A stretch of DNA of 64,000 bases. Source: a virus. Below are positions 26,789 through 50,325 of the stretch, piece after piece. The stretch's first letter is position 1. Every line of letters starts with the position of its first letter. The stretch covers positions 62,998-126,997 of the IMG/VR virus record IMGVR_UViG_3300037310_000404. The stretch is one strand, 5' to 3'. A program made the position numbers and the translations under genes. The notes below the pieces were generated by a model, which saw nothing but the letters and a program-made list of their open reading frames with translations, ran no database searches and had not been told where the DNA came from.

Positions 26789-26884
26789 GGGGGCGACAGG
26801 TTTCGACGGGAGAAGTGAACGATAGGACGCATGCCGGGGGATGCTCAAGATACCTCGTTAAAAATTTCTAGGGCACAGAGAACT

Positions 26885-26914
26885 GCTGAAGACGCAGAAC
26901 TCCTAGCAGCTTAA
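26885..26914 (+). other. tmRNA tag reading frame (A)AEDAELLAA*
   Basis: GCT resume codon after AGAACT; ends LAA-TAA. Confidence 0.8.
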
Positions 26915-27113
26915 TTGCTGCACTCAACATGGGGACTCCTCTAACTATGTATGAGCCGCAGAGGATAGGATCAGAACAAAGCTTATTTCGCCAATCAGCT
27001 TACTTGTCTGATCTGAAATAAAGAGCGAAAGTGGCAAAAAGTGTTGCCGGACCTGAAAACCGGATAAGCATGTAGTTGGTCTACCAGGATCATCTTTCGG
27101 ACGTGGGTTCGAT

Positions 27114-27711
27114 TAAGGAGCCGATAAGCTATGAAGATTGAATATCTAGCTGGCATAATAGATGTGGAAGGCACCATGTCTATATTTATGGATGGCGGTA
27201 AAATGGTTCCATCCATAACGGTTGCCAATACCAACAAAAAACTGCTAGATGAAATCTTCAAATTCCTTAAAGCGAACGGAGTAAAATCCGAAATATGTAT
27301 GCATAAAGCAAGATCGGCGAGGCATAAAGACTCATACAGCCTGAGAGTCAGATGGAATGCCGCGATAAGACTTGCCAGCATGCTAGACGGATTTCTGATA
27401 ATCAAAACAGAACAATGCAAATTGCTTGTTAATGATTTTCGGAAAAGGACTCCGAGAAATGGCAAATATTCGCAAGGAATGCTGGCTAGCAAAAATAAGT
27501 TGATAGCCAGGTTTAGAAAGCTCAACAGTCGCGGTGTATAGTAATATACACATGAAAAATTCTCTCTGATTGACTTGGAAGCCCTGAAGAGGGTGACAAG
27601 GCGGAAGGCCTAAAGCCACCGTGAACGACTAAGCGAGAGAACATCCTATAACAAGGATGATGCGATAGTCTAAGCTGCATGTATAACAAAATAAGATGCA
27701 GGAAAGTGCTG
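27114..27711 (+). mobile_element. Group I intron in the tmRNA T-loop
   Basis: 5' exon ends in U and intron ends in G; P3 TTCTCTC/GAGAGAA (27560-66/27635-41); P7 GACTA/TAGTC (27627-31/27666-70); P2, P8 and P9 hairpins. Confidence 0.9.
27131..27541 (+). CDS. Single-motif LAGLIDADG homing endonuclease
   Basis: YLAGIIDVEGTMSI; SD AAGGAG at the intron 5' end. Confidence 0.92.
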   Translation: MKIEYLAGIIDVEGTMSIFMDGGKMVPSITVANTNKKLLDEIFKFLKANGVKSEICMHKARSARHKDSYSLRVRWNAAIRLASMLDGFLIIKTEQCKLLVNDFRKRTPRNGKYSQGMLASKNKLIARFRKLNSRGV

Positions 27712-46023: not shown

Positions 46024-46752
46024 TTATAGGAGATCTTTAAATTTGCCAACATTTTCATCTTTGTCGCCATCCTCCTTTTCGTCGATAATTTTACGCATCT
46101 CCCTAAAAACTTCTTCTGCCGGTATTAGTTTTTCTGTTCCATTATCTATTTCTTCTACGCGCCTTTTTAGCTCTTTAGCCTGCTCATCTCTATTTTCCGG
46201 GGTTCCGTGAAAGCTTATTTCCCACAACAGAGCCCAAATGACATCCATCAAACACAAACTTTTCTTTCCTTTAAATAAAGGTGGCTCTTGAGGATTTTGA
46301 TACAGCTTTCTTATTTCGAATTCATCGCTCACAACTATCGGCAAATGCTTCAACGAATTGATTGGAGAAAAATCAAGAGCATATCTTTCTCCATCAATAC
46401 CAATTCCTGTGGCGTCGAAAGATTCAACAACCTCCCCATCTTCGTACTGTTCTATAATGCGGCCAATTCTGATGTGTTTTATTTTTTGTATGTGTTCTAT
46501 TGAATCTTTATCTAGATCTCCTATTGGTTTTTTCATTTCCTCATAAAAAACTTCAAAATCACACCATGCCAATTCTCCCCATACACCACCAAGAGGCTTT
46601 ATGAGCTCTAACATATCCTCAACAGTCCATCCGTCGATTTCGGCTATGCCGTCGACAATCGCAACCTTTAAGATATCGTCATACTCGATTACCTTTTTTG
46701 CACCGTAGTAATCGCTTATGATTGTTTTGTCTTTTTTGAGATATAGACTCAT
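46024..46752 (-). CDS. Hypothetical protein
   Basis: 242-aa ORF. Confidence 0.75.
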   Translation of the reverse strand: MSLYLKKDKTIISDYYGAKKVIEYDDILKVAIVDGIAEIDGWTVEDMLELIKPLGGVWGELAWCDFEVFYEEMKKPIGDLDKDSIEHIQKIKHIRIGRIIEQYEDGEVVESFDATGIGIDGERYALDFSPINSLKHLPIVVSDEFEIRKLYQNPQEPPLFKGKKSLCLMDVIWALLWEISFHGTPENRDEQAKELKRRVEEIDNGTEKLIPAEEVFREMRKIIDEKEDGDKDENVGKFKDLL

Positions 46753-46766
46753 CTTTTTCTCTAATT

Positions 46767-46799
46767 AAAAAGCCAGTAGACTTATAATCTACCGGCTTT
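46767..46799 (-). terminator. Intrinsic terminator
   Basis: GCCGGTAGAT-TATAA-GTCTACTGGC-TTTTT. Confidence 0.85.
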
Positions 46800-46803
46800 G
46801 AAT

Positions 46804-47013
46804 TGGTGGGCGATCGGAGAGGGGAACCTAACAGCTCGTCTTAGGCGAAAGAGTGTTAAGCGTTGCTTTGTGAGGTCTTAGGATTAACTGTTGAAGTAAT
46901 AAAATTTAAGTTTTAAGAACTTTATCTTCATCAGCATATGGATAATGGCTTATCAGGCCAATCCGTTTAACGATCCTATGACTCACTGCTAGGTTCCGCC
47001 CCTCCTCACGCCC
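46804..47013 (-). ncRNA. Unassigned ~210-nt structured RNA ending in ACCA
   Basis: 5'/3' rod GGGCG-TGA-GGAGGGG-C-GGAACCTAGCAG / CTGTTAGGTTCCCCTCTCC-GAT-CGCCC-ACCA plus internal stems; no ORF. Confidence 0.7.
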
Positions 47014-47040
47014 GTGCTCTCGGGTTTCCCCGAGGTACAA

Positions 47041-47523
47041 TCACAGACTGATCTCTGGAACCTCGATCTGTGTCGTGTGATTGAAGGCGGTAAGCTCGTC
47101 GTGCAGCTTTTCGATTTCCTTTTCGATGTCCCTTACCTTGGCATCGATGTCTGTATCCTTTAGATAGACAACCCTCTTAACCGTCTTCACCGTCTCTTCT
47201 TCCCCGGTCTGGCGGTTGTACTTAGTCTCTTCGTGATCTTGCTCGTTGGTGTTGATCTGACGCAACTGAGCAGCCTTAGACTTCAGCTCGGCAATACGGT
47301 AAATCTTGCCATAGACTGGAGCATTAGCAGTCGCGATGGCAGACTTAACCGCCACCAAAGCCTCGACGATCTTCTCATATTTCTCTAACTCGACCTTGGC
47401 CTCGTAATTCACCTTCTGGGTTTCAAGACGCGAGTTGGATGCGGAAACAGTCCTAAAGAGGCGCTCCTTCTCTCCGACTAGGCGGTTCTTAAGATTTAGT
47501 GCCTTCGCGATTGTGACCTTCAT
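47041..47523 (-). CDS. DIP1984/DUF6847-like coiled-coil protein
   Basis: TIAKALNLKNRL...NS...LKSAI..AN...IAELKS...IEKLHDELTAFNHTT.IEV; SD GAGGAG. Confidence 0.6.
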   Translation of the reverse strand: MKVTIAKALNLKNRLVGEKERLFRTVSASNSRLETQKVNYEAKVELEKYEKIVEALVAVKSAIATANAPVYGKIYRIAELKSKAAQLRQINTNEQDHEETKYNRQTGEEETVKTVKRVVYLKDTDIDAKVRDIEKEIEKLHDELTAFNHTTQIEVPEISL

Positions 47524-47562
47524 GATTATCTCCTCTTATTTTGACTTTGTTATTATATTGTT

Positions 47563-47591
47563 ATTATACCAGAATAGCTTTATTTTGTCAA
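47563..47591 (-). promoter_or_regulatory. Consensus sigma70 promoter
   Basis: TTGACA-17-TATAAT with TG extension. Confidence 0.85.
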
Positions 47592-47874: not shown

Positions 47875-48973
47875 TTAATTTTTAATAAAAACGCAATCTT
47901 TTATCAACTCATCAATGTCGCCATTTAATATTTTCTCAACCCCATATTCTCTGCCAGTCCTTTCATCTTTTACAATTTGTCTGCCATAAACCAAATAAGT
48001 TCTAATCTGATGTCCAAAACTAACATCATCTTTCTCGCCAGCCAATGCCCTCTCTTCCTTCTTAATATTCGATTCTTCTAGATATATTAGTCTAGATTTT
48101 AGTTCGTCCATGGCTATTTCACGATTTTCGTTTTGTGATCTAGTGGTTTGGCATTTTACCGTGATACCAGATGGGATGTGTTTAATTCTAACAGCCGTCT
48201 CCACCTTATTGACATTTTGACCACCTTTACCACCAGACCTAAAAAAATCTATCTCTATATCCGATTTTGGTATTTTTATATCTTTTTGTTCTCTATCAAT
48301 CACTGGCACAATATCCACACGAGCAAATGAAGTCTGCCTTCTCTGGTTTGCGTCAAAAGGAGAAATTCGCATGAGTCTATGCACCCCTGATTCGCGTCTT
48401 AATTTTCCATATACGTAATTTCCGTCTATCCTGAAAGTAACAGTTTTGATCCCAGCCACTTCTCCTGGTTGCTTATTAATTATAGATATATTGAGACCAT
48501 TCTTTTCCGCCCATCTGGAGTACATGCGCAATAGTATCTTAACCCAATCCTGGCTCTCTGTCCCGCCAGCTCCGGATTGGATAGTCAGAATAGCACTGTT
48601 TTTATCATATAGTCCAGAAAAAGCCCGCATACGGTCTATATCGTCAAGAGCAGATGCGAGTTTGATGATGTTAGTATCGAGCTCGCGGGCTATCCCTTGA
48701 TCGTCATGGTTCTCTAGGATCTCAATGGCATAAGCTATATTATCCAGCATAGAGGCTAAAGCTCTATATCGGTTCAGGTCTTCTCTTGTCGAGTTTATTT
48801 GTATTTGTTTTTGTTTCGCAGTCTTATTATCTAACCAAAAATTTTTTGACTGCATCTCAAATTCGAGGCGTGCTATTAAAGCCTCTTTGGATGAAACATC
48901 AAAGGAACTCCTGGCACTCCTTAACGCGGAGCGCAAGATTCTGGTATACATTTTTCAGCTTATTGTCCAACAT
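47875..48973 (-). CDS. prfB: Peptide chain release factor 2 with programmed +1 frameshift
   Basis: SPF and GGQ motifs; 24-codon first frame from ATG 48973 (SD AAGGAG) ends CTT TGA, and the +1 frame continues DVSSKEA. Confidence 0.93.
48898..48912 (-). promoter_or_regulatory. prfB +1 frameshift cassette
   Basis: AGGAG-TTC-CTT-TGA-T (internal SD 3 nt before the slippery CTT). Confidence 0.9.
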
Positions 48974-49281: not shown

Positions 49282-49373
<92 letters not shown>

Positions 49374-49613: not shown

Positions 49614-49775
49614 TCACTTGTTTTCGACAACTGGCACATTTTTTGGCTGGTAACATCCCCATTCCGACCTCAGGTATTTCTCGCACTCAATACACCTTAT
49701 GCCCAGCAGCTTCTTCATCCCTTTTGTGTCTGTGGCGTATTGCCTGTATATACTTTTATCCTTGCTTTTTTTCAT
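49614..49775 (-). CDS. Small hypothetical protein
   Basis: ATG 49775 with SD GGGGA; CIEC. Confidence 0.4.
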   Translation of the reverse strand: MKKSKDKSIYRQYATDTKGMKKLLGIRCIECEKYLRSEWGCYQPKNVPVVENK

Positions 49776-50325
49776 GTCCCCTAAACAGTGTTGGGCTATA
49801 TAACTGTTCCATGTAGTGCCTGTGCGTTGCCATGATGATTTCCCGAGCCCTGTCTGATGACTCGTTTTCCCCAACCACTACCTCTTTCTTTTCAAGGATT
49901 TTGTACTCTTCAAAGAACCGCTTCAGTTCATCTTGTTGGTATTCTGGCAAGTCCTTTAGCTCCTTATGCATTGACACTGAAGCATCCCCTACCGGAACGC
50001 AAACTATCTTGCTATCGATCTTCCCTTGATCCATCATCTGAATGACACCAATAGGTTTTACATCAACAATACAACCGGGATAAATGATTGTTTGCCCGAG
50101 CACAACGGCATCAAGCGGATCGTTGTCATGGGCTAGGGTTTGTGGGAAGAACCCGTAGTTAAACGGGTATCGACTTGCCCCAAGCAAGACCCTGTCTAAT
50201 CTGATAACCCCATATTCTTTATCGAGCTCAAATTTGTTCTTGCATCCGGAGTTGATTTCTATAACTGCAGTACAAACTTCTGGAGAATTTTTCCCTAACT
50301 TTATATCATGCCACAAATGAACCAT
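49756..50325 (-). CDS. ppa: Family I inorganic pyrophosphatase
   Basis: KNKFELDKE, LDR, YPFNYGF, DNDPLD, D.KIVCV. Confidence 0.94.
   Translation of the reverse strand: MVHLWHDIKLGKNSPEVCTAVIEINSGCKNKFELDKEYGVIRLDRVLLGASRYPFNYGFFPQTLAHDNDPLDAVVLGQTIIYPGCIVDVKPIGVIQMMDQGKIDSKIVCVPVGDASVSMHKELKDLPEYQQDELKRFFEEYKILEKKEVVVGENESSDRAREIIMATHRHYMEQLYSPTLFRGHEKKQG

Follow-up and report, generated by a model that had tools for sequence, protein, structure and literature searches.

A conserved structured RNA with seven-nucleotide repeats accompanies a DUF6847-type gene in phages

Why would a phage encode a structured RNA directly behind a small gene with no assigned function? This question is raised by positions 46,767 to 47,591 of the 64,000-nt stretch of DNA analysed here (the window), which forms the second half of the 127-kb IMG/VR virus record IMGVR_UViG_3300037310_000404, from a large freshwater phage. 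The record is linear and approximately 66% complete, and the same DNA was found in two freshwater metagenome DNA runs, with no RNA run listed as containing it. On the minus strand, one transcription unit holds a 483-nt gene for a remote member of the DIP1984/DUF6847 protein family (PF20935; NF038048; 3KDQ; often auto-named 'septicolysin') and a 210-nt structured RNA (47013-46804). We judge the chances to be somewhat better than even that the two constitute a dedicated protein-RNA pair, in which the mRNA would release a stable RNA by cleavage and oligomers of the co-encoded protein would bind it.

A structured RNA tied to one gene family

A preliminary description of this locus, made from the DNA letters, had drawn the RNA as a long rod closing on an unpaired tail, and the minimum-free-energy fold reproduces this rod in full. 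The 47013-46804 stretch folds at -78.2 kcal/mol versus -47.5 ± 4.7 kcal/mol for shuffled sequences (z = -6.5), with none of 200 shuffles being as good. The terminal rod, P1, consists of 5 bp, a 3 x 3 loop, 7 bp, a bulged C and 12 bp, and leaves ACCA unpaired; its 5' strand (46986..47013) was recovered by the fold and the clade consensus, and its 3' strand (46808..46834) by the fold, the arm and strand tests and the covariation described below. Within the rod, the fold places hairpin P2a (GGAUUGGCC...GCCAUUAUCC; 46940..46964), where the hairpin of the relatives has two compensatory pairs, and alignment identifies a conserved motif, GAUGAAGAUAAAG (46920..46932), which takes the form GAUnAAGAUAAAG in the window's clade and GAUnnnnGAUnnUGAU in distant subgroups. 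An inner helix that had also been drawn (GUGAG..UAGGAU with AUCCUA..CUCAC) is present in the window's own fold, but the corresponding 3' stretch of the relatives is an unpaired repeat array; this helix (46985-46972 with 46884-46870), which lies outside the clade consensus, may be window-specific or spurious. Separately, 46966-46959 (GUUAAACG) could pair with 46863-46856 (CGCUUAAC) at seven of eight positions, forming a pseudoknot across the inner helix, and a GUUAA/UUAAC pairing recurs in subgroups A and E.

Relatives of the gene were collected from IMG/VR, nine loci by single-sequence search and then the best 80 of 115 by profile, giving 60 distinct loci. At all but one of these, 140-210 nt of non-coding sequence directly follows the stop codon and its ends pair as a long rod. 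For the window's clade, a single-sequence search yielded 17 proteins of 53-66% identity, and DNA was obtained for seven of these closer relatives (L102-L108); in all seven, as in the huge phage LR756500, the element again lies directly 3' of the gene, while the comparable element of the huge phage LR756511 is placed farther 3', past a short lysine-rich open reading frame (ORF). In LR756511, a 595-kb uncultured phage (locus L100), this ORF of approximately 28 residues is located approximately 20-110 nt after the gene and before the repeat RNA, which carries four perfect GUUAAAA-type heptads ahead of AAAACUCUUU. These two uncultured huge phages were the only matches in a protein search of INPHARED; a DNA search of INPHARED returned no match, and a genome collection scan matched one metagenome-assembled genome contig. 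In phage T5 (AY543070), neither NF038048 nor PF20935 nor a profile of the present family gave a match, the best hit of an hmmsearch over 143 T5 ORFs had an E of 0.17, and a generic scan for lag 7 revealed nothing obvious, though a relative at fold level may exist there. When the RNA core was searched as a DNA pattern, copies were found only beside the gene, apart from four chance matches in coding sequence. Other neighbours, including GTP cyclohydrolase I, a phosphoribosyltransferase and assorted DUFs, are not conserved. The RNA is tied genetically to the upstream DUF6847-type gene across dozens of uncultivated phages, as expected of a protein-RNA pair.

Covariation behind homologous genes, which the preliminary description had proposed as a check, was found in the window's clade by two methods. 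Using six clade sequences whose proteins are 53-66% identical, RNAalifold called 47 pairs, 20 of them with compensatory changes, and left the array unpaired. Pair counting on the same alignment found 84.6% of cells paired versus 42-55% with slid partners, and 21 pairs changed on both sides versus at most 12 in the slid controls; none of 500 shuffles attained any of these measures. In the rod alone, 16 of 31 pairs are compensatory. Subgroup C by itself gave moderate support (79.9% of cells paired versus 42-62% when slid). RNAalifold called no pairs on a MAFFT alignment of 56 elements, since sequence alignment fails for rods from different subgroups, and this alignment was replaced by the clade-level tests together with comparisons of cognate and non-cognate arms and of the two strands. 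On inspection, subgroups A, D and E show a candidate long-range core helix between a GAU strand and a UCAA strand, with a few compensatory changes; it is not significant versus shuffles and is absent in B and C.

The arm and strand comparisons used 29 divergent elements. Cognate outer arms pair at -23.0 ± 6.4 kcal/mol versus -10.5 ± 4.3 kcal/mol for non-cognate arms (29 x 29 test), and the best pairing partner was the cognate arm in 23 of 29 elements; the rod sequences are wholly different between subgroups, yet their pairing is kept. Sense-strand rods average -24.2 kcal/mol versus -17.4 kcal/mol for the antisense strand (Wilcoxon p = 6e-6) and contain 67 G.U pairs versus 17, and in 28 of the 29 elements the rod is stronger on the sense strand. 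Since the pairing is strand-specific, selection acts on RNA made from the gene's strand and not on DNA. The interior behaves differently from the rod. At a protein identity of 0.52, core identity is 0.59 versus 0.29-0.35 for the rod flanks, and the core, unlike the rod, is read by its sequence. It holds GAUnnnnGAUnnUGAU, several U(C/U)AA units, and AA(A/C)CUCUU just ahead of the 3' rod strand. The clade layout runs from a hairpin after the stop codon (in the window and six of seven relatives) through a 30-40-bp rod, GAUnAAGAUAAAG, a small hairpin and the array to the 3' rod strand.

The RNA matches none of the catalogued families that were searched. An Rfam search of 46600-47200 at E <= 10 returned no family save a chance miRNA match on the terminator, which bears out the earlier opinion that the RNA is not a tRNA, tmRNA, 6S, signal recognition particle (SRP) or RNase P RNA. 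The families of Rfam 15 (tRNA, tmRNA, 6S, SRP, RNase P, YrlA, RAGATH-27 and others) were likewise unmatched (E <= 1) when elements from 20 related loci were searched. Searches of the 127-kb record for 6S and RNase P RNAs also found none, a result that is uninformative for a phage. The RNA had been described as free of ORFs, and its sole frame is a 44-residue ORF with a TTG start. The structured RNA is genuine, conserved and strand-specific, belongs to an uncatalogued family, and has an obligatory link to a DUF6847-type gene.

The repeat array and the co-encoded protein

A feature overlooked by the preliminary description is a 7-nt periodic array at 46916-46847 (-), where ten units stand in one register and the last is a conserved CUCUUUC (46853-46847). 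Across the 29 divergent elements, YAA motifs occur at lag 7 in 68 cases versus 20.8 expected (z = 10), and lags 15 and 22 also stand out as secondary peaks. Cut back from the conserved CUCUUYC, the window and its seven closer relatives each give 7-10 units in one strict register. The clade unit consensus is N-U-Y-A-N-M-M; of 56 units, 50 have U at the second position and 46 have A at the fourth, and G hardly occurs. Array units vary between the close relatives L104 and L105 with the register retained; among subgroup A elements the array hardly changes while the rods diverge.

Pfam returned no match for the window protein alone. Against DIP1984_fam (NF038048) the protein scores 13.2 bits, where the cut-off is 70, in a collinear match of residues 5-152 to profile positions 2-148 of 149. 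In the 36-member protein alignment, all 36 relatives match NF038048 (best 7e-10) and 21 match PF20935/DUF6847 (best 9e-7). As all of these matches lie under the 70-bit curated cut-off, with the window protein far below it, the protein belongs to a remote subfamily of DIP1984/DUF6847. The AlphaFold2 (AF2) model (predicted local distance difference test, pLDDT, 89) has four helices and a beta-hairpin, and the top two Foldseek matches are chains of 3KDQ (probability 1.00, template-modelling score 0.58-0.62), followed by a match at probability 0.38. 3KDQ, a function-unknown Corynebacterium diphtheriae protein, is the sole convincing fold match in the PDB. The label 'DIP1984/DUF6847-like' in the preliminary description was therefore correct, if remote, given the relatives' profile matches and the 3KDQ fold. 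The family comprises at least 1,927 metagenome clusters, all 'hypothetical'; the nearest clusters in the ESM Atlas, which are mostly viral, bear PF20935, and one bacterial cluster is auto-named 'putative septicolysin'. Sequence searches with the protein gave only coiled-coil noise in the PDB and nothing useful in PHROGs. In the literature, we found no paper describing the gene and RNA as a pair and none naming DUF6847; the single mention of DIP1984 has, in the portion of the source available, no apparent RNA link, and the 'septicolysin' papers are, from the parts available, genome or plasmid surveys.

The co-encoded protein is predicted to self-associate. Four copies folded with our own protein alignment reached an ipSAE (interaction score from predicted aligned errors) of 0.72 versus 0.00 for the best of three controls. 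Of 30 proteins solved as one-chain pairs, 20 reached the ipSAE mark, as did one of 23 solved as single chains; this calibration is only rough here because it used two copies and other alignments. The self-association runs agree in at least 74% of contacts with a partner pLDDT of at least 85, and the predicted interface is symmetric, lies on helices 2 and 3, and includes the invariant ANAPVYGKI motif. Since 3KDQ is a solved relative, the score may reflect a structure already learned by the model.

The transcription unit, its proposed processing and its neighbours

The preliminary description had placed a promoter, a Shine-Dalgarno sequence, a 160-residue ORF, a GAAA hairpin, the RNA and a terminator on the minus strand, and each was found at its position. 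The sigma-70-type promoter, TTGACA-17 nt-TATAAT with an upstream TG (extended -10), matches the consensus at 12 of 12 positions (47563..47591). The Shine-Dalgarno sequence AAGAGGAG (47530..47537), read from the sequence, lies 6 nt ahead of the ATG at 47523. The gene itself (47041..47523), supported by the ORF, the profiles and the AF2 model, encodes a helical protein with the motifs ANAPVYGKI and C-terminal HNxTTxI. A GAAA-tetraloop hairpin, CUCGGG-GAAA-CCCGAG (47019..47034; z = -3.7), separates the stop codon from the RNA; a GC-rich hairpin follows the stop codon in the window and six of its seven closer relatives and differs in sequence among them. The unit closes with an intrinsic terminator of a 14-bp hairpin followed by UUUUU (46767..46799; z = -7.6), although a consensus scan for terminators listed none at 46799-46767 despite this hairpin and U-run.

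The ends of the RNA bear on how it might be processed. In the window fold, G47013, the proposed mature 5' end, pairs with C46808, after which the unpaired ACCA (46804..46807) is the proposed mature 3' end. The tail after the rod reads ACCC in L104 and L105, ACCU in L107 and L108, UCUAU in L102 and AUCU in L103, so that the paired first G and ACC(N) are kept in five of seven clade sequences, the window included. A paired first G with an unpaired ACC(N) is the arrangement of the precursors of tRNA and of E. coli 4.5S RNA, both of which are RNase P substrates, and 4.5S RNA ends ...CCCCC-ACCC. The element shares with these precursors a long rod, a paired 5' G and an unpaired 3' ACC(A/C), with L104 and L105 ending exactly as 4.5S RNA does, and a CCA that is gene-encoded, as in the phage's tRNA-Ser. 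Because of this resemblance, and because the phage tRNA-Ser gene encodes its CCA, it is reasonable to infer by analogy that in the window's clade RNase P processes the 5' end and the 3' end is trimmed to CCA. The element differs from these precursors in having neither the SRP domain IV motif nor tRNA arms, and the Rfam SRP, tRNA and tmRNA models do not match it. The RNA lacks a T arm and G3.U70, its first five rod pairs all being G-C or C-G, and ARAGORN, run on the window, found only the tRNA-Ser and nothing at the element. The earlier suggestion of RNase-P-substrate or tRNA-acceptor-like ends is thus plausible for the window's clade, but nothing else about the RNA is tRNA-like and the tail is absent from distant subgroups.

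Taken as a dedicated protein-RNA pair, the locus would work as follows. The primary transcript would start at the 47591 promoter and end at the 46767 terminator. A 5' cut before G47013 would release a stable RNA; this cut would probably be made by RNase P, which we name because the end, with its paired first G and A-C-C-A tail, resembles a 4.5S RNA or tRNA acceptor. The 3' end would be trimmed back to ACCA, and the GAAA hairpin would stay on the mRNA as a protective 3' cap. The long GC-rich rod would lock both ends of the released RNA and present a G-poor, largely single-stranded row of approximately ten heptads ending in CUCUUUC, to which the self-associating DIP1984/DUF6847-type protein would bind with approximately one protomer or dimer per repeat. 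The DUF6847-type protein and the RNA thus probably form a ribonucleoprotein on a 7-nt repeat. This retains part of what had been suggested before, a processed stable RNA in a ribonucleoprotein with the upstream protein, insofar as the RNA is a genuine, covarying, sense-strand RNA linked to the gene; the accompanying ideas of a tRNA decoy and of a toxin-antitoxin-type pair are unsupported. For the latter no such feature was found, the repeats being 7 nt long and downstream of the gene. PADLOC gave only weak matches (E of 3e-4 or worse, mostly to LmuB models and taken as coiled-coil noise) and no toxin family.

In the window, the module is preceded directly by a class-I peptide-chain release factor (358 aa with PCRF and RF-1 domains, in one uninterrupted frame; 47875-48951, -), and nearby on the same strand lie a tRNA-Ser(GGA) with gene-encoded CCA/GCCA (49284-49373, -) and an inorganic pyrophosphatase gene (49756-50325, -). 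In three clade contigs the peptidyl-tRNA hydrolase PTH2 follows the module, and in one Thg1 precedes it. Same-strand tRNAs occur within approximately 1.5 kb of the module in 12 of 58 loci, and a tmRNA adjoins L071. Since the clade module sits amid a class-I release factor, PTH2, Thg1 and tRNAs, we incline to a function in translation or tRNA metabolism in infected cells. The tRNAs by the module are mostly tRNA-Ser(UGA) and tRNA-Leu(UAA), both class II (L011, L017, L021, L038, L051, L052, L071, L074, L078, L079 and L088), which could reflect chance or a functional link. Elsewhere in the window, 26796-27115 (+) matches the Rfam tmRNA model at 78.9 bits in an alignment without both acceptor-stem strands and was not called by ARAGORN; this element may be a phage tmRNA of unusual form, for instance permuted or truncated. 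The gene past the terminator (46024-46752, -) encodes 242 residues, and its C-terminus matches the Unstab_antitox addiction-module antitoxin domain PF09720 (1.8e-7).

Competing explanations, known systems and significance

Several observations weigh against a protein-coated heptad RNA. Two of seven clade sequences lack the ACC tail, as do all distant subgroups, in which a U-run or a separate terminator comes after the rod. Clear heptad chains in distant subgroups are short, 3-5 units versus approximately two in shuffles, and part of the periodicity there could be structural rather than a protein-binding code, because several pairing registers are open to the 5' GAU-rich strand and the repeats of those subgroups. 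In the window's own fold, the helix between 46985-46972 and 46884-46870 sequesters approximately three heptads, so the array may not be freely single-stranded in the window. No RNA-binding domain is recognised in the protein, which is close to neutral (median pI 6.8). That translation genes lie nearby is anecdotal; other subgroups adjoin GTP cyclohydrolase I or a phosphoribosyltransferase.

One alternative is that the RNA acts without the co-encoded protein and titrates, as a decoy or sponge, a host factor with a preference for G-poor, A/C-rich single strands (ribosomal protein S1, Hfq or Rho), the gene being merely co-transcribed. The core and array are kept across phages with only approximately 50% protein identity, as would suit a host partner common to all of them; the array has little G and no pairing in the consensus, and translation genes adjoin the module. 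Against this, the only constant neighbour of the RNA, over approximately 70 loci of otherwise differing context, is this protein family, and gene-free copies would be expected at least sometimes, whereas the core pattern search found none. We therefore regard a host decoy as rather unlikely.

We also think it unlikely that the element is a cis-acting 3' untranslated region, whose rod and array would stabilise the mRNA, bring about its termination or act as an operator for autoregulation by the protein, with no separate stable RNA. The RNA is always on the gene's transcript, and in many distant subgroups a U-run comes directly after the rod, which could thus double as a terminator. In the window and its clade, however, a separate terminator follows the rod, a conserved hairpin parts the stop codon from the rod, and the rod ends resemble processing sites; moreover, a conserved core of at least 90 nt with a strict 7-nt register far exceeds what stabilisation needs.

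The dedicated protein-RNA pair that we favour has counterparts among other systems. In Bacillus, HutP (on the hut leader) and TRAP (on the trp leader) are oligomers that read evenly spaced motifs on single-stranded RNA, and HutP reads UAG every 7 nt. They resemble the proposed particle in placing an oligomeric protein on a short motif at fixed spacing. They differ in that the proteins are unrelated, the leaders are cis-acting termination elements rather than end-locked stable RNAs, and the motif here is U-Y-A instead of UAG or GAG. Like tmRNA with SmpB and Y RNA with Ro60, the element would be a stable RNA whose ends pair as a rod or acceptor, with a dedicated small protein and often near phage tRNA genes. 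Unlike tmRNA, it has no tRNA-like domain, tag ORF or G3.U70, and the Rfam tmRNA model is unmatched; as for Ro60 and Y RNA, there is no TROVE (PF05731) match in the 127-kb, approximately 66% complete record and the YrlA model is unmatched. Type III toxin-antitoxin loci have antitoxin repeats of approximately 36 nt upstream of an endoribonuclease toxin gene, whereas the repeats here are 7 nt long and downstream of the gene, and PADLOC found no toxin family.

A closer architectural parallel is VIPR, in which protomers of the Vipr protein polymerise along an RNA, vrRNA (bioRxiv 10.64898/2026.04.26.720920, 10.64898/2026.04.26.720927). Both systems are mostly phage-encoded, and in each a small protein goes with an RNA in which short tandem units precede a conserved structured tail. 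Vipr, however, is a RAMP/RRM protein (an RRM core, G-loop and thumb), whereas the protein here has the all-helical DIP1984 fold with no RAMP among its fold matches, and vrRNA has 9-16 YNNGG units of 5 nt with hypervariable NN, in contrast to largely conserved 7-nt N-U-Y-A-N-M-M units that nearly exclude G. The resemblance is thus one of architecture only. It nevertheless raises the idea of a guide-RNA system of new lineage, in which protomers would coat the heptads, hold U-Y-A and expose the other bases for gapped reading of a DNA or RNA target, as in VIPR. The element is phage-encoded, its short-period repeat RNA is followed by a conserved structured tail (CUCUUYC and the rod), and its small protein is predicted to self-associate, parallel to the system of bioRxiv 10.64898/2026.04.26.720920; in addition, the units of L104 and L105 differ while their register is kept. 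Set against this are the helical DIP1984 fold instead of RAMP/RRM, a period of 7 rather than 5, and the subgroup A array, nearly invariant while the rods diverge, which is the opposite of hypervariable guide positions. We consider such a guide system quite improbable. Equally improbable is its more specific form, a second, non-RAMP 'filament on a repeat RNA' lineage that would clamp U-Y-A and read its target with the four other bases by a gapped code; because of the gene neighbourhood, a tRNA, an mRNA or the ribosome could be what it recognises in infection instead. Finally, a DNA-level element (an origin, iterons, a packaging site or an inverted-repeat mobile element), which short repeats in AT-rich DNA with a flanking inverted repeat might suggest, is barely credible in view of the strand-asymmetric rod (67 versus 17 G.U pairs, with the sense strand stronger in 28 of 29 elements), its fixed position directly after one gene, on that gene's strand and inside its transcription unit, and a period of 7 nt rather than the 10-11 nt of the DNA helix.

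One further system has a repeat of the same length. Cluster #156,623, a 7-nt periodic twin array found mostly in Patescibacteriota, is noncoding, had no associated protein found, and carries fixed tetramers in one array that are reverse-complementary to those of the second, with codirectional flanking genes (bioRxiv 10.64898/2026.10.21.760802). Subgroups A, D and E of the heptad RNA behave in this way, with 5' UGAU repeats facing 3' AUCA/UCAA repeats, whereas the window's clade has one long array and not two equal ones. Compared by description only, the twin-array cluster may be related to the heptad RNA.

These results describe a mostly viral protein family of at least 1,927 metagenome clusters, with no assigned function, that travels with its own RNA, one absent from Rfam. 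If the particle forms as proposed, it would be a widespread phage ribonucleoprotein with a 7-nt reading frame, a design shared only by analogy with the HutP and TRAP leaders, Cas7 backbones and VIPR filaments. The pair may also supply a protein partner for the effector-less 7-nt periodic array of 10.64898/2026.10.21.760802. DUF6847 thereby gains a testable hypothesis, and the 'translation islands' of huge phages gain a new component.

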